DNA of 20,812 nucleotides. Origin: Okeania sp. (GTDB lineage: Bacteria; Cyanobacteriota; Cyanobacteriia; Cyanobacteriales; Microcoleaceae). The DNA lies in assembly GCF_035285525.1 (NCBI RefSeq), contig NZ_JAYKGW010000202.1:1-20812 (forward strand), read 5' to 3'. The stretch's first letter is position 1, and each line of letters opens with the position of its first letter. This document shows positions 296 through 16,957 of this stretch, one piece after another. The notes beneath the pieces were generated by a model, which worked only from the letters and a program-made list of their open reading frames with translations, had not been told where the DNA came from and ran no database searches. The position numbers and the translations under genes are program-made.

Positions 296-1378
296 ATGGT
301 AGAACATAAACGTGTTGGTATCTTGACCAGTGGAGGAGATTGTGCAGGTTTAAACCCTGCAATTCGCGCTGTAGTCTATCATGCAATAGGAACTTACGGT
401 TGGGAAGTTGTCGGAATTCGTCAAGCTACTCAAGGATTGATGGAGCGTCCACCAAAAACACTTAAACTAGAGATCGAAGGAATAGACCCCTTACTAACTT
501 CAGGTGGCACAATTTTAGGAACTACAAATAAAGGTAATCCTTTTGCCTTTCCCATGTCAGATGGTACTTTGCGCGATCGCTCTCAAGAAATTATTGACGG
601 TTATCATTTACTGGGACTTGATGCTTTAATTGGTATTGGAGGGGATGGTAGTCTTGCTATCCTGCGTAAAGTTGCTCAACAAGGAAACTTGAACTTAGTA
701 GGTATCCCCAAAACCATTGATAATGACGTTAACTGTACTGAACTATCTATTGGTTTTAATACTGCTGTCAAAATTGCCACAGAAGCATTAGACCGTTTAC
801 ATTTTACTGCTGCTAGTCATAGTCGCGTGATAATTTTAGAAGTAATGGGAAGAGATGCGGGTCATATTGCTCTGAATGCTGGGATTGCTGGTGGTGCAGA
901 TGTGATTTTAATTCCGGAAATTCCTTACAAAATAGAAAATATTTGTAACTATATCCGCAAACGTCAGGATTTAGGCAAAAATTACTCCTTGATCATTGTA
1001 GCAGAGGCAGTGCGGACTGAAGCAGGGGAAGCAGTGACACAAGATGATTTATCAGGTAAATCTCGCTTTGGGGGTATTGGGTATTATCTAGCTGAGAAAA
1101 TCTCTGATGGTAGTGGTGCAGAAGTTCGCGTTATAGTGTTGGGTCATATTCAAAGGGGTGGTGTTCCTTCCACCATCGATCGCTTAGTTGCTTCAGCTTT
1201 TGGAGTTGGCGCGATTGAGTTGATTGCTGAAGGAAAATATGACCAGATGGTAACTTGGCAAAATAGACAAGTTGTTAGTGTGCCGATTGAGGAGGCGATA
1301 GCTAAATATAGAGCAGTAGATCCTGATGATACTTTAGTTAAAACTGCGCGATGTATGGGTATTTGTTTGGGAGATTAA
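296..1378 (+). CDS. pfkA: ATP-dependent 6-phosphofructokinase
   Basis: 360-aa ORF with ATG start and TAA stop. Carries canonical PFK-A motifs: GILTSGGDCAGLNPAIRAVV at the N-terminus, IGGDGS, IPKTIDND, and MGRDAGHIAL. Confidence 0.93.
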   Translation: MVEHKRVGILTSGGDCAGLNPAIRAVVYHAIGTYGWEVVGIRQATQGLMERPPKTLKLEIEGIDPLLTSGGTILGTTNKGNPFAFPMSDGTLRDRSQEIIDGYHLLGLDALIGIGGDGSLAILRKVAQQGNLNLVGIPKTIDNDVNCTELSIGFNTAVKIATEALDRLHFTAASHSRVIILEVMGRDAGHIALNAGIAGGADVILIPEIPYKIENICNYIRKRQDLGKNYSLIIVAEAVRTEAGEAVTQDDLSGKSRFGGIGYYLAEKISDGSGAEVRVIVLGHIQRGGVPSTIDRLVASAFGVGAIELIAEGKYDQMVTWQNRQVVSVPIEEAIAKYRAVDPDDTLVKTARCMGICLGD

Positions 1379-1444: not shown

Positions 1445-1936
1445 GTAGGGGTTTGGTCTCCAAACCCTCTTCATACCCTTCCCAAAATTAAAATTAATGT
1501 ATAATCCAATCAATGTAGGGGTTTCGTCTCCAAACCCTCTTCCCATAATGTGGGGGTGTGCTCTCCAAATCTTACCCAAAATATCAAAATTAAAATAAAT
1601 GTATAATCCAATCAATGTAGGGGTTTCGTCTCCAAACCCTCTTCCCATAATGTGGTGGTTGGCTCTCCAAAATATCAAAGCCATATAATAACCCAAAATT
1701 AAAATAGATGTATAATCCAATAAATGTAGGGGTTTTGGAGACAAAACCCTCTTCATACCCTTCCCAAAATTAAAATAAATGTATAATCAAATCAATGTAG
1801 GGGTTTGGAGACAAAACCCCTACGATCAAATGCTACAACCTATTTGGGTTTGGAGACAAAACCCCTACCATAATAGATTCGGTTTGGAGACAAAACCACT
1901 ACCACAATAGATTCGGTTTGGAGACAAAACCACTAC
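1445..1936. repeat. Array of 8 REP-like GTAG-led palindromic hairpins (consensus GTAGGGGTTTGGAGACAAAACCCCTAC) with repeated AT-rich linkers
   Basis: Hairpin copies start at 1445, 1515, 1617, 1726, 1797, 1846, 1881 and 1915. The linkers are themselves repeated (units of about 70 and 102-109 bp, then 3 x 34 bp). The array ends 11 nt before the RAYT ATG. Confidence 0.85.
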
Positions 1937-1947
1937 GATCAAAAGAA

Positions 1948-2526
1948 ATGACCTCCAAAAATTATAATCCAGAAATCCATCATCGTCGTTCTATTCGTCT
2001 GAAATATTACGATTATAATCAAGCAGGAGCATACTTTGTTACTATTTGCGTGCAGGATAAAAAATGTTTGTTAGGTAAAATCAAGGAAGGTTTAAATCAG
2101 ATTAACCAGTATGGAAAAATTGTTGAGGAAATTGGGAATTATTTACCAATAAATTTTTCTAGAATAGAAATTGATGGAGCTGTTATCATGCCAAATCATT
2201 TTCATGGAATTATTGTTATTAATGAATATCAAAAATTTGGAGAAAGTTTCAAAGGATCTTGAGAAAAAGATTTCGAGAGACCGGGGAAATTTTATGATCA
2301 AAAGACTTTTTTAGGTTCGGTTATTGCTTATTTTAAGTATGAGACTACTAAGTTAATTAACTTACAAAGAAATTCTCCAGGGGTTAAGTTTTGGCAACGT
2401 AATTATTATGAGCGTATTGTTAGGAATGAGGATTCTTTGAATATTTTGCGTAATTATATTGTTGAAAATCCTCTGCGATGGGAAATGGATGTATTACATC
2501 CCGATAATTTGACGGGGGTTGGGTAG
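1948..2526 (+). pseudogene. REP-associated tyrosine transposase (RAYT; IS200/IS605-type Y1 HUH transposase) interrupted by one in-frame TGA at 2260-2262
   Basis: The track ORF 1918-2262 uses a TTG start inside the last REP; ATG 1948 is more plausible. The N-terminal part reads HHRRSIRLKYYDYNQAGAYFVTICVQDK...VIMPNHFHGIIVI (HUH motif). After the TGA the same frame stays open to TAG 2524-2526 and encodes ...FLGSVIAYFKYETTKLIN...FWQRNYYERIVRNEDSLNILRNYIVENPLRWEMD, the catalytic-Tyr region typical of this family. Joined length is 191 aa. Confidence 0.8.
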
Positions 2527-2550
2527 GAGGGTTTGGAGACCAAACTCCTT
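2526..2550. repeat. REP-like hairpin copy immediately 3' of the RAYT gene
   Basis: GGAGGGTTTGGAGACCAAACTCCTT has the same GGTTTGGAGAC core as the upstream array. It overlaps the last base of the RAYT stop codon. Confidence 0.6.
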
Positions 2551-2602
2551 CGACTACTCCCAAGAAAGCGATCACATTAGTTATTTAATAGCTGATCTCT
2601 GG

Positions 2603-2630
2603 GTAGGGACGTTGCATACAACATCCCTAC
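2603..2630. repeat. Second hairpin family, GTAGGGAC...(G/A)TCCCTAC
   Basis: GTAGGGACGTTGCATACAACATCCCTAC is an imperfect palindrome. It lies 12 nt 3' of the cobK stop, between the convergent RAYT and cobK genes. A related copy is at 4033-4060. Confidence 0.6.
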
Positions 2631-2641
2631 AAGATTATAAT

Positions 2642-3409
2642 TTAAGAATTAATCATTAGCTTGATCATTTTTTTTATCCAAGCAACTGCACTCTCCACAT
2701 CACTTACTTGTTCTCCTTCAGGAAGAGGTGGACGTTGAATCATCACCACTGGCATACCTAACTCCCGTGCAGCAACAATCTTAGCATAGGTAGCATCACC
2801 ACCACTATTTTTACTCACGATCGCCTCAATCTCATACTTTTGCAAAAGCGATCGCTCTTCCTCAAAATAAAAAGGTCCGCGTTCAGTCAAGATTTTTCCC
2901 GGAGGTACTAAACTATCTGGTGGAAATAAATCGATGATTCGGATTAAAAACCAGAGATGTTTGAGATGAGCATAACTTGCTAACTCTTGGCGACCAATAC
3001 TCAAAAATATTCGTGAACCTAAATTTGCCAAAACTTTAACCGCAACTTCATTATTTTCTGCTTCTATCCAGCGATCGCCCTCAACTTTTTTCCAAGGAGG
3101 ACGAACTAACATTAAACGAGGGATCTTTAGTTCTGAAGAAGCGATCGCTGCATTCCCAGAAATTTGACTTGCAAAAGGATGAGTTGCATCAATTAACAAA
3201 TCTATTTCCTGTTCTCGTAGATAATTTATCAATCCAGACACACCACCAAAACCGCCAATGCGTCTAGGAGTAGATCCGATTGCAGGTTGCCGAGTCCGAC
3301 CTGCAAGAGAATTTATTATCTCTAATTCTGGTATAGTAGAAATTAAAGCTATTAATTTTGAGCTATGCCCAGTACCACCAAGAACCAACACTCGTTTGTC
3401 TCTTGCCAT
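2642..3409 (-). CDS. cobK: Precorrin-6A / cobalt-precorrin-6A reductase
   Basis: The track ORF (to 3532) is trimmed to the ATG at 3409, giving MARDKRVLVLGGTG. Family pattern: VLVLGGTG..., GGFGGVSGLINYL, IDLLIDATHPFASQIS, ERGPF, IVSKNSGGDATYAKIVAARELGMPVVMIQRP. The upstream 41 codons run into a MITE. Confidence 0.85.
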   Translation of the reverse strand: MARDKRVLVLGGTGHSSKLIALISTIPELEIINSLAGRTRQPAIGSTPRRIGGFGGVSGLINYLREQEIDLLIDATHPFASQISGNAAIASSELKIPRLMLVRPPWKKVEGDRWIEAENNEVAVKVLANLGSRIFLSIGRQELASYAHLKHLWFLIRIIDLFPPDSLVPPGKILTERGPFYFEEERSLLQKYEIEAIVSKNSGGDATYAKIVAARELGMPVVMIQRPPLPEGEQVSDVESAVAWIKKMIKLMINS

Positions 3410-3443
3410 AGTTACGGAATAATGAATAATTAATAACTTAATA

Positions 3444-3601
3444 CAGGACTTACGCACGCGCAACGTATTTCTGTCATGGCGGGACTCCCAGCGCCAACAA
3501 AACGCAAGCGACAGCGTTTCGCTCCGGGACATGAATGCGGAGTATTCCGGACCGAAAGCAATCTCAAATGACCCAAACTCGTTCCGGATGCGTAAGTCCT
3601 G
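3444..3601. mobile_element. MITE-like element with 13-nt terminal inverted repeats CAGGACTTACGCA / TGCGTAAGTCCTG and a GC-rich interior
   Basis: TIRs lie at 3444-3456 and 3589-3601. The interior is visibly more GC-rich than its flanks. It sits 35 nt upstream of the cobK start. The 64-aa track ORF 3430-3624 lies inside it and is discounted. Confidence 0.6.
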
Positions 3602-4032: not shown

Positions 4033-4060
4033 GTAGGGACATTACACGCAACGTCCCTAC
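4033..4060. repeat. Hairpin of the GTAGGGAC...GTCCCTAC family
   Basis: GTAGGGACATTACACGCAACGTCCCTAC, located 52 nt 3' of the 94-aa minus-strand ORF. Confidence 0.6.
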
Positions 4061-5947: not shown

Positions 5948-6219
5948 ATAGGGTTCTGAAAAAGTATTTTTAAGGATATAGGGAGATGGGGATATAGGGA
6001 GATGGGGAGATGGGGAGATGGGGAGATGGGGAGATGGGGAGATGGGGAGATGGGGAGATGGGGAGTAATTTTGCTGCCCAACTCTTCGCCAAAATACACT
6101 CCTTTTTAAACCAGGGCTACCCAAAAAGTAGCACTTTTACGGTTCCCGAGAAATCAGAACCTAAAAAGACATTTACCTTTTATATGTCAAATTTTTCATA
6201 CTTTTTCAGCAATCCCTAA
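5948..6219. mobile_element. MITE of the TTAGG...CCTAA superfamily (ends TAGGGTTCTGAAAAAGTA / TACTTTTTCAGCAATCCCTAA) carrying an expanded octamer array
   Basis: Its reverse complement aligns along its length with 14424-14615, sharing the core GGTTCCCGAGAAATCAGAACCTAAA / GTAAAAGTGC. The 69-aa track ORF 6010-6219 lies inside it and is discounted. Confidence 0.7.
5974..6064. repeat. Octanucleotide tandem repeat (GATGGGGA)n
   Basis: 8 perfect units at 6001-6064, preceded by degenerate units at 5974-6000. Confidence 0.95.
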
Positions 6220-13039: not shown

Positions 13040-13065
13040 GTAGGGGTTTGGTCTCCCAACCCTAG
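13040..13065. repeat. Dispersed copy of the REP-like hairpin from the RAYT locus
   Basis: GTAGGGGTTTGGTCTCCCAACCCTAG has the same GTAGGGGTTTGGTCTCC core as 1445-1470. Confidence 0.7.
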
Positions 13066-13068
13066 TCA

Positions 13069-13212
13069 AAATGGGATTGGGAAACTAAAGCCCTATTATC
13101 AAATATCAAAATAAAATCTATTTAAGAATATTAGATAACTAAATGGGGTTGGGAAAATAAACCCCTACTATAAAATGTCACAATAAAATCTATTTAAGAA
13201 TATTAGAGAACA
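13069..13212. repeat. 2 x 72-bp tandem repeat, each unit a degenerate REP-like hairpin plus an AT-rich linker
   Basis: Unit 1 is AAATGGGATTGGGAAACTAAAGCCCTAT...AATAAAATCTATTTAAGAATATTAGATAAC. Unit 2 is AAATGGGGTTGGGAAAATAAACCCCTAC...AATAAAATCTATTTAAGAATATTAGAGAAC. Confidence 0.8.
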
Positions 13213-13300: not shown

Positions 13301-13744
13301 ATGGAATTTGAAACATTAGCTCAAGCAGAATGTTATCAAAAAATTGATGGTTGGATGGCAGAATTATTTAGTGATTATCCTTGGGAAAAACTTGATGAAC
13401 CAGGGTTTAGTATATTTTTAGGTTCTGCTTGGGTAGAAGTAAGAATTTATCCTTGGGGTGAGGATAGTATTATTAATACTTGTTCTACTGTAGTTATTGG
13501 AGCTGAATTAAAGTCTGATTTACTGGAATTTTTATTACGAGAAAATAGTAATATGCAGTTTGGTGCTTTCTCTTTAGATACTGATGGAAATATCTTATTT
13601 CAACACAGTATAATTGGTTCTACTTGTGACCCAAATGAGTTGGAAGAATCTGCTTTAGCAGTTTTGGAAGTTGCTGATGATTATGACGATAAAACTGTTG
13701 AACGTTGGGGCGGTAAACGTGGGTTAGATATTCCACCTCAATAA
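13301..13744 (+). CDS. YbjN-like / type III secretion chaperone-like family protein (putative)
   Basis: 147 aa and acidic. The pattern ...VEVRIYPWGE...VVIGAEL...LLEFLLRENSNMQFGAFSLDTDGNILFQHSIIG...ELEESALAVLEVADDYDDK resembles YbjN-domain proteins. This is a motif-level call only. Confidence 0.5.
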   Translation: MEFETLAQAECYQKIDGWMAELFSDYPWEKLDEPGFSIFLGSAWVEVRIYPWGEDSIINTCSTVVIGAELKSDLLEFLLRENSNMQFGAFSLDTDGNILFQHSIIGSTCDPNELEESALAVLEVADDYDDKTVERWGGKRGLDIPPQ

Positions 13745-13921: not shown

Positions 13922-13963
13922 TGATAATTGATAACTGATAATTGATAACTGATAACTGAAAAG
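13922..13963. repeat. STRR-like heptamer array (TGATAAY)n
   Basis: TGATAAT TGATAAC TGATAAT TGATAAC TGATAAC TGAAAAG, ending at the base before the nuiA ATG. Confidence 0.9.
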
Positions 13964-16682: not shown

Positions 16683-16957
16683 TTAAGGCTGGCTGAATAA
16701 ATATCAGAGTATTGATATATAAAGATTAAAGGTTTTTTGGGGTAAAAAAAAGTGCTAATAAATTACTAAATTAATCTTTAAAACTTCAGATTTTTCCTCA
16801 TAAAACTTGAAAAAAGGAAAAAAATTAACACCTGCAACTATTGCCTATTGCCTATTGCCTATTGCCTATTGCCTATTGCCTATTGCCCATTGCCTATTGC
16901 CTATTGCCCATTGCCTATTCCCTAAATTCACCAACAGACTTTTTCAGCACACCCTAA
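16683..16957. mobile_element. MITE of the TTAGG...CCTAA superfamily carrying an expanded heptamer array
   Basis: Aligns with the reverse complement of 14616-14817, for example AAAAGTGCTAATAAATTACTAAATTAATCTTTAAAA...AGATTTTTCCTCATAAAAC...AAATTAACACCTGCAAC. The right end is ACTTTTTCAGCACACCCTAA. Confidence 0.65.
16838..16921. repeat. Heptanucleotide tandem repeat (CTATTGC)n, 12 units
   Basis: Counted directly: 9 perfect CTATTGC, 2 CCATTGC, and 1 CTATTCC. Confidence 0.95.

Follow-up and report, generated by a model that had tools for sequence, protein, structure and literature searches.

A REP/RAYT locus between pfk and cobK in Okeania: a subclass 2.4 transposase gene, probably inactivated, within its own hairpin array

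The TnpA-REP protein (YafM) of Escherichia coli K-12 is a REP-associated tyrosine transposase (RAYT) that binds folded repetitive extragenic palindromes (REPs) as single-stranded DNA. It uses a 5' GTAG as its guide, of which A3 and G4 set a CT cleavage site that can be on either side of the hairpin, and it cleaves and recombines bacterial interspersed mosaic elements (BIMEs) (PMC3333891, PMC3479197). Recognition of GTAG by the E. coli protein involves residues W94, Q95, E100, H101 and R104 (PMC6006769). In this study, we analyzed a locus of this kind in a cyanobacterium. It occupies the 1,263-nt intergenic region (1379-2641) between a phosphofructokinase gene (pfk) and cobK/cbiJ on the Okeania sp. 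contig NZ_JAYKGW010000202.1 (GCF_035285525.1), of which a stretch of 20,812 nt, here called the window, was examined as a whole. We read the region as a REPtron, a domesticated chromosomal RAYT gene of subclass 2.4 (Group 4) accompanied by its cognate REP arrays, in which the gene has probably been inactivated, and we put the probability of this reading at roughly 85%.

The closest described relatives of the locus are the RAYTs of subclass 2.4 (PMC6006769), which correspond to RAYT Group 4 (PMC5581495). Members of the subclass carry the motifs NH[IFV]H, WQ and YIxNNP, have a mean length of 194 aa, a median distance of 88 residues between the HuH motif and the tyrosine, and a variable insertion (PMC6006769, Table 1). 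The Okeania gene resembles them in its motifs, in a length of about 194 aa and in a variable loop between HuH and tyrosine (86 residues, against the median of 88). The likeness extends to the hairpins, which include "canonical long" GT[AG]G REPs with three G-C foot pairs as well as "double-foot" REPs, and which lie within 1 kb of the gene and, in homologous genes, in frame inside it. Abundance in cyanobacteria and low copy number are further traits described for the subclass. The window differs from the subclass in having a nonsense codon in the variable loop, in having no detectable REP insertion inside the gene, and in that its flanking REPs are mostly mutated, tandem-duplicated copies.

Other known systems share fewer of these features. 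With E. coli TnpA-REP, whose structure is 4ER8 (PMC3333891, PMC3479197), the locus has in common the Y1 HUH fold and flanking GTAG-tagged REPs, and the GTAG-recognition residues W94/Q95/E100/R104 of the E. coli enzyme correspond to W149/Q150/E155/R159 here. The E. coli REPtron is likewise a chromosomal gene that is inherited vertically and lost in some lineages. However, the two proteins are only about 18% identical, the E. coli enzyme belongs to subclass 2.2, it acts with REPs whose stems are bulged and longer and which are organized as BIMEs, and its inhibitory C-terminal extension is not evident in the window protein; the biochemistry on record is that of the E. coli enzyme. In the Pseudomonas REPIN/RAYT system (PMC3116915) repeats also flank the RAYT gene, and inverted REP doublets like those of REPINs occur in genomes related to the one studied here. 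The Pseudomonas RAYT is single-copy and, unlike the gene here, belongs to Group 3, and the present system further differs in that the window holds no spaced doublet, the same REP recurs across many genera, and mobility is putative. The cyanobacterial families GTAG-12, -15 and -16 (PMC3733652) are similar short GTAG-tagged palindromes of filamentous and unicellular hosts, found as singletons, dimers and tandem clusters with flanking DNA and associated with REPtrons. Finally, insertion sequences (ISs) of the IS200/IS605 family, such as IS608 and ISDra2, share the Y1 HUH fold, recognition of single-stranded hairpins and a guide tetranucleotide that precedes the hairpin on its 5' side. Their class 1 motifs, dimeric enzyme, distinct left and right ends, frequent tnpB partner and many horizontally transferred copies are not seen in the window.

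The transposase and its in-frame stop codon

The open reading frame (ORF) enclosed by the hairpins is of the Y1/HUH type, and the protein it specifies is closer to TnpA-REP than to IS200/IS605 TnpA by its profile matches, fold matches and motifs. NF047646 (REP_Tyr_transpos, "REP-associated tyrosine transposase") was its only NCBIfam match (E = 2.6e-15), and the NCBIfam IS200 model did not match the window protein. All 31 aligned homologues match the REP-associated model, and 3 of the 31 also match the IS200 model, weakly. The family is large: 7,956 of 8,000 scored candidates in the homologue search had E <= 1e-5, and among the best 120 listed nearly every match with a named organism was cyanobacterial.

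The signature motifs of subclass 2.4 are present. The HuH motif (H84/H86, encoded at 2197-2205) reads P-N-H84-F-H86-G and so has the form NH[IFV]H; W149 and Q150 (2392-2397) are accompanied by E155 and R159; and the catalytic tyrosine, Y170 (2455-2457), stands 86 residues after H84 in the sequence Y170-I-V-E-N-P. Three blocks, MPNHFHG, WQRNYY and Y170-xxx-NP, are invariant in sets of 31 and 52 aligned homologues. The class 1.1 transposases of ISs have instead DH[VI]H, W[TS] and Y[IV]ENQ (PMC6006769). Searched against the PDB, a profile of the family found 4ER8 as its only significant match (E = 4.7e-6), in an alignment spanning the HuH motif and the WQ...YIxxNP segment; this profile was used in place of a single-sequence phmmer search, which returned one spurious match and nothing else. 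As a stand-in for the window protein we took the structure model of P0001, an intact orthologue with 92% identity (AlphaFold2, predicted local distance difference test score 84.6). Foldseek placed 4ER8 at the top for this model, with a root-mean-square deviation (rmsd) of 3.0 Å over 154 columns, and the TnpA proteins of IS200, IS608 and ISDra2 below it, at ranks 2-30 with rmsd values of 4.4-16 Å. TnpB homologues were found neither in the window nor next to 85 loci of the family, in agreement with the initial annotation, which had seen no tnpB partner. Its reading of the locus as a REP/RAYT module in a cyanobacterium is supported by the class 2 motifs, the matches to 4ER8, the lack of tnpB and, as described below, by conserved synteny and by the occurrence of the hairpin both beside homologues in other genera and at sites far from any such gene.

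The gene of the window is interrupted. A frame running from the ATG to the TAG stop (2524-2526) on the + strand exists as first proposed, but its "joined 191-aa translation" is not the product of one ORF, because a TGA at codon 105 splits it into two in-frame pieces. The same codon is TGG (Trp) in a related metagenome-assembled genome (MAG) and AGG (Arg) in the locus of an intact orthologue, and one G-to-A transition from TGG would suffice to produce the stop. Because W149/Q150 and Y170 all fall beyond the TGA, a 104-aa product would be no transposase. Two further substitutions are specific to the window, one of the near-invariant W63 to G and one of the C-terminal W192 to G, and at position 156, the counterpart of H101 in the E. 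coli enzyme, the orthologues have H where the window has R. Pairwise dN/dS values between the window gene and its relatives are 0.22-0.31, so that inactivation, if the gene is dead, was recent. Judged from its reading frame, the gene is most likely a recently inactivated pseudogene, the alternative being that rare read-through is its one route to expression. The suggestion that the locus is a candidate source of the repeat family can therefore hold at best historically, as the nonsense codon precedes the catalytic tyrosine.

We also considered a decayed REP insertion in the variable loop and rejected it, as there is no site with 9 or fewer mismatches in the loop of the window gene or of the intact orthologue; the same search in the related MAG gave one site, which is at chance level. 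Among database records we found no independent assembly covering the stop codon and no intact identical product. The truncated RAYT products and the cobK product were likewise not found on record, and the only record of the pfk product was a 1.3-kb Logan contig, which is identical to the pfk region and ends inside the first hairpin, R1, as is expected where a repeat breaks assembly.

The intact orthologue P0001 (192 aa) occurs on three short metagenome contigs. At its loci L002/L003, 45-nt tandem units, each with GGGTTTGGAGACCAAACCCCTAC, lie on each side of the gene, and the last upstream hairpin is again separated from the ATG by 11 nt. In locus L110, from the MAG "Cyanobacteria bacterium P01_H01_bin.35", the end of pfk is followed by the same spacer, by R1 and by the RAYT gene, at 86-90% nucleotide identity. 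The position of the RAYT gene at pfk is thus shared with a diverged relative, which is the behavior of a chromosomal gene and not of a hopping IS. The bin.35 gene has lost its first 49 codons together with the entire array upstream, and it has L in place of W149; this RAYT is thus dead by a lesion different from that of the window. One locus is therefore seen in three states: intact, interrupted by a nonsense codon, and 5'-deleted. The bin.35 locus also has an insertion of about 1.27 kb (L110 1753-3027) with a tnpB-only (OrfB_IS605) element; this tnpB was rejected as a partner of the RAYT gene since it sits inside the insertion that splits pfk. A metagenome scan returned no orthologue above 60% identity, and no further synteny was gained from it.

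The hairpin, its local array and its association with the gene

The REP consists of a 5' GTAG followed by GGGTTTGG-TCT-CCAAACCC, an 8-bp stem with three G-C pairs at the foot. Related copies are packed around the single ORF in the hairpin-bearing part of the pfk-cobK spacer (1445-2551), where nine REPs (R1 to R9) and two degenerate GTGG-tagged companions make up the local array (Table 1). Allowing at most 1 mismatch, the window has 10 sites for the core pattern GGTTTNGWSWCNAAACC, of which nine fall within 1450-2546 and one is at 13045, whereas 100 dinucleotide-preserving shuffles gave none. A scan for GT[AG]G with a directly adjoining stem-loop gave 9 sites in the window, against 0.9 ± 1.0 in Markov-1 controls. 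Ten GT[AG]G hairpins with a GGG/CCC foot flank the gene over 503 nt upstream and 25 nt downstream.

Most of what had been read from the letters at first about these copies stands. Eight recognizable copies do lie directly 5' of the ORF, with starts at 1445, 1515, 1617, 1726, 1797, 1846, 1880 and 1914, and the last of them ends 11 nt before the ATG, as described. The copy at the end of the ORF is real, but it begins 3 nt after the stop codon and does not overlap it. Of the three distant copies proposed, those at 13040 and 13146 are recognizable, while the one near 13072 is very degenerate. The 27-mer given as consensus has one exact match, in the double-foot copy R5, and just one further site within 3 mismatches.

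Table 1. Positions of the genes, hairpins and repeat units in the window
Feature	Position	Strand	Description
pfk (phosphofructokinase gene)	296-1378	+	
REP R1, GTAGGGGTTTGGTCTCCAAACCC	1445-1467	+	canonical: GTAG tag, 8-bp stem, TCT loop; left outermost copy
Tandem duplication, 102-nt unit	1481-1735		2.4 copies, 87% match; spacer, R2/R3 and degenerate companion
REP R2, GTAGGGGTTTCGTCTCCAAACCC	1515-1537	+	one stem mismatch, leaving a 6-bp stem
Degenerate GTGG-tagged companion	1550-1577	+	direct orientation, 35 nt after R2; 71%
REP R3	1617-1639	+	identical to R2; within the 102-nt tandem unit
Degenerate GTGG-tagged companion after R3	1652-1679	+	64%
REP R4, GTAGGGGTTTTGGAGACAAAACCC	1726-1749	+	flanks of + tagged units, hairpin centre opposite (chimera or "flip")
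Double-foot REP R5, GTAGGGGTTTGGAGACAAAACCCCTAC	1797-1823		GTAG at 5' end, CTAC at 3' end
REP R6	1846-1868	-	GGGTTTGGAGACAAAACCCCTAC on + strand; tag on - strand
Tandem duplication, 34-nt unit	1847-1936		2.6 copies, 96% match; carries R6-R8
REP R7	1880-1902	-	3 mismatches, 5-bp stem
REP R8	1914-1936	-	identical to R7; ends 11 nt before ATG
RAYT/tnpA-REP gene, subclass 2.4 (Group 4)	1948-2526	+	191 sense codons, one in-frame TGA
In-frame TGA, codon 105	2260-2262	+	in variable loop between HUH motif and Tyr
REP R9, GGGTTTGGAGACCAAACTCCTTC	2529-2551	-	tag decayed to CTTC; right outermost copy
Second, different double-foot GTAG...CTAC palindrome, GTAGGGACGTTGCATACAACATCCCTAC	2603-2630		77 nt after RAYT stop
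cobK/cbiJ gene	2642-3532	-	
Dispersed REP, same family	13040-13062	+	1 mismatch; 10.5 kb from gene
72-nt unit, twice in tandem	13069-13211		degenerate REPs, including 13146-13168 (4 mismatches, - tag)

Within the array the GTAG tag is on the + strand at R1 to R4, on the - strand at R6 to R9 and on both at R5, which the alignment of the units identifies as the junction between the + tagged and - tagged orientation blocks. R1 is the sole local copy with the canonical 8-bp stem (DNA fold of -7.8 kcal/mol, z = -4.4), and it is kept at the same place in bin.35 (L110 3440-3462). Most of the copies R2 to R9 have a stem mismatch close to the loop, and their folds are no more stable than those of shuffled sequences. 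R9 is inverted relative to R1 and 92% complementary to it over 26 nt. Of the 9 copies around the gene that differ from the core by up to 4 mismatches, 7 are stem-mutated, against 114 canonical copies among 184 elsewhere.

The local array is mostly made up of mutated copies multiplied by tandem duplication, not of fresh canonical insertions. It expanded chiefly via local duplication of the 102-nt and 34-nt units. We read the double-foot copy at 1797 as the fusion product of an inverted REP dimer; the double-foot type has been described before, with an inverted dimer that loses its centre as its suggested origin (PMC6006769). R4, in which an inverted centre lies within shared flanks, suggests recombination or template switching between opposed palindromic stems.

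Each of the long upstream units also contains TGTATAAT (1497-1504, 1599-1606, 1708-1715 and 1779-1786), which resembles an extended -10 box, lies 10 nt before GTAG and is directed at the gene. A scan for consensus -35/-10 promoters and terminators stayed at chance level, and an Rfam search gave no match.

The association of this hairpin with this gene is conserved across the family. In six other cyanobacterial lineages the same hairpin, with compensatory changes in the stems, flanks the homologous gene. Those of Phormidium pseudopriestleyi, Coleofasciculus, Picosynechococcus PCC 7117 and Oxynema CENA135, at 56-63% identity, have family hairpins within about 350 nt, as does the homologue in bin.35, and flanking hairpins were seen at loci L002, L103 and L110-L113. 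Compensatory stem variants beside homologues include GGATTTGG/CCAAATCC and GGGCTTGG/CCAAGCCC. In the homologues P0002, P0003, P0005, P0008 and P0018 the variable loop contains RGLVSKP or GLVSKP; RGLVSKP is the in-frame translation of AGGGGTTTGGTCTCCAAACCC, a hairpin copy lodged within the gene for its own transposase. In-frame REP insertions inside homologous genes have been reported previously (PMC6006769).

A wider set of 80 metagenomic family loci points the same way. The density of GT[AG]G hairpins is 2.32/kb up to 400 nt from the gene and 0.11/kb farther away, a difference of about 20-fold; at 47 of the 80 loci at least one lies in this 400-nt zone, and 118 further GT[AG]G hairpins lie inside genes. 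The hairpin with a TTT stem is common to the closest relatives, while distant ones keep GTAGGGG...CCC, often with a GG-TCT-CC top, and differ in the middle of the stem. At loci L114-L193 we also noted that these mid-stem changes are paired (TTT/AAA, CGA/TCG, CGG/CCG, CAC/GTG) and that many of the genes hold one or two in-frame REP insertions.

The hairpin is also dispersed without the gene. Species-representative genomes were scanned with the pattern GTTTGGAGACNAAACCCCTAC, which was found in at least 105 stretches of at least 31 cyanobacterial genomes from about 12 named genera, among them Okeania, Trichodesmium, Dapis, Spirulina, Phormidium, Coleofasciculus, Aphanothece, Chroococcus, Planktothrix, Pseudanabaena and Crocosphaera. 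The listed stretches hold 184 copies within 3 mismatches, of which 114 are canonical. A homologue of the gene is present in 1 of these 105 stretches and missing from the other 104. Where copies are neighbors elsewhere, they either repeat in direct orientation at a spacing of 9-13 nt or form inverted pairs whose tags face outward, and 12 of 18 such inverted pairs in other genomes are spaced by 10-11 nt, like REPIN doublets. Within the window there is no spaced inverted doublet, only the fused double-foot copy, and away from the gene the REP occurs at one further locus, 13040-13211. The 72-nt tandem pair at that locus shortly precedes a YbjN/TY-Chap1-like gene (13301-13744).

Proposed mechanism and alternative explanations

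Homology with E. coli TnpA-REP suggests that the enzyme would bind the folded REP on single-stranded DNA, and it is also the ground for presuming which strand is used. A3 and G4 of GTAG would pick a CT dinucleotide, and Y170, together with a metal bound by the HUH motif, would carry out cleavage and rejoining. The outcome would be REPs spread round the chromosome, singly or as inverted dimers. We propose that the same chemistry acts on GTAG-GGGTTTGG-TCT-CCAAACCC because the residues that contact GTAG are conserved. In the window itself the system looks run down, with a nonsense codon in the gene and mutated, tandem-amplified hairpins on its flanks.

Several points weigh against our reading of the locus as a subclass 2.4 REPtron with an inactivated gene. 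The TGA is possibly a sequencing error or may be read through, a dN/dS of 0.2-0.3 shows no sign of prolonged neutral decay, and a change like H156R is tolerated in other subclasses (PMC6006769). The score with NF047646 is 56.6 bits, below the cut-off of 80, and the 31 aligned homologues behave likewise. Pfam Y1_Tnp (PF01797), the profile by which the initial annotation proposed to check the protein, did match, but at 20.6 bits against a cut-off of 23. The mechanism proposed for subclass 2.4 is transferred from the E. coli enzyme across the low identity noted above, and the counts from other genomes are lower bounds, obtained with a search pattern that required CTAC.

Among the alternatives, the one to be taken most seriously, although we consider it the less probable course, is that the gene is alive. 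The TGA would then be a sequencing or assembly error, or it would be leaky and read as Trp, with RAYT activity perhaps kept deliberately low. The TGG of L110 is one transition away from TGA, the remainder of the ORF is in frame and keeps all family-invariant residues, pairwise dN/dS is 0.22-0.29, and the stop sits in a loop that tolerates insertions of many sequences (see also PMC6006769). The E. coli enzyme, too, is auto-inhibited and under strong down-regulation (PMC3479197). However, the window lineage has also replaced both W63 and W192 by G, the local REPs are mostly stem-mutated, and no intact identical product was found on record. The syntenic gene of bin.35, moreover, is certainly dead (49 codons deleted, W149L), so loss at this RAYT locus does happen. 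A regulatory function of the hairpins for the host, as transcript ends, mRNA stabilizers or protein-binding sites that selection maintains and that lie next to a transposase gene incidentally, seems to us quite improbable. Enterobacterial REPs have such roles (PMC3733652); the copies are intergenic, their sequence is unusually constant across genera, and the double-foot copy scores as terminator-like on the - strand. Such roles could coexist with RAYT-driven spread, but they leave the asymmetric GTAG tag unexplained, as well as the systematic association with the gene (20-fold over 80 loci, in six lineages and with in-frame insertions), and neither the terminator and promoter scans nor Rfam lent them support.

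Least probable of all, and very unlikely in our judgment, is an autonomous IS200/IS605-type element, a self-mobilizing gene with the hairpins at 1445 and 2529 as its ends. These two outermost copies do bracket the gene and are complementary to each other as described, the fold is common to the TnpA proteins of IS200, IS608 and ISDra2, and there are the three weak matches of homologues to the IS200 model. Yet the motifs NHFH, WQ and YIVENP are those of class 2 and not of class 1.1, and 4ER8, not an IS TnpA, was the sole profile match and the best fold match. The position beside pfk is also shared with a relative that differs by 10-14% in nucleotides, and the hairpin occurs without the gene at more than 100 places; the number and orientation of the flanking copies vary among homologues, with all of them direct in L002, and no tnpB accompanies the gene in the window. 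We therefore favor a REPtron over an IS200/IS605 element because of the conserved position, the purifying selection and the dispersal of the hairpin without the gene.

Each structural element of this REPtron has been described before, namely the GTAG tag and GGG foot of the hairpin, its double-foot variant, REPs beside the gene or inside it, occurrence in cyanobacteria and loss of the gene in some lineages (PMC6006769, PMC5581495, PMC3733652, PMC3333891); our understanding of how REPs and RAYTs work is unchanged. Specific to this locus are the hairpin sequence, given explicitly, with the range of cyanobacterial genera that have it, the intact, nonsense and 5'-deleted states of the locus, and the chimeric and fused hairpin copies, none of which will surprise a specialist. 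The analysis adds a documented REPtron of the cyanobacterial subclass 2.4 and names its cognate hairpin, which many cyanobacteria, both filamentous and unicellular, have in common and which accounts for short arrays of repeats and for breaks in the assembly of these genomes. In-frame "RGLVSKP" inserts can be flagged as REP-derived, and the three states of one locus can be used for studying RAYT loss.

A bolder account is that the window catches a RAYT just after its death, that a related lineage lost the gene independently through a 5' deletion, and that a 23-nt REP is nearly identical across about a dozen genera; taken together, we regard this as unlikely. If it were true, the pair of lineages would be a natural experiment on the decay of REPs after RAYT loss, and the identity of the REP across genera would point to horizontal spread of the REPtron or to an unusually rigid match between enzyme and hairpin. 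Should the complete genome have no other intact RAYT of this clade and yet many canonical REPs, the hairpins would persist without their transposase. Such persistence, if true, would imply host selection or a paralogue acting in trans.

Other repeats in the window

The window contains further repeats apart from this REP family. The second double-foot palindrome of Table 1 occurs again at 4033-4060, with the consensus ...GCATGC... elsewhere, and members with up to 5 mismatches are present in Okeania, Dapis, Trichodesmium, Spirulina and the bin.35 loci. A stretch of about 90 nt at 10534-10627 matches loci of Dapis (L092, 88.5%), Okeania (L006, 92%) and bin.35 (L110, 79%) and is probably another short dispersed repeat. 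Tandem repeats with units of 7-8 nt lie at 5981-6065, 16838-16924, 13922-13959 and about 20 other sites, for example GGGAGATG in 10.6 copies and CTATTGC in 12.4, and these we take to resemble the short tandemly repeated repetitive (STRR)-like repeats of filamentous cyanobacteria.

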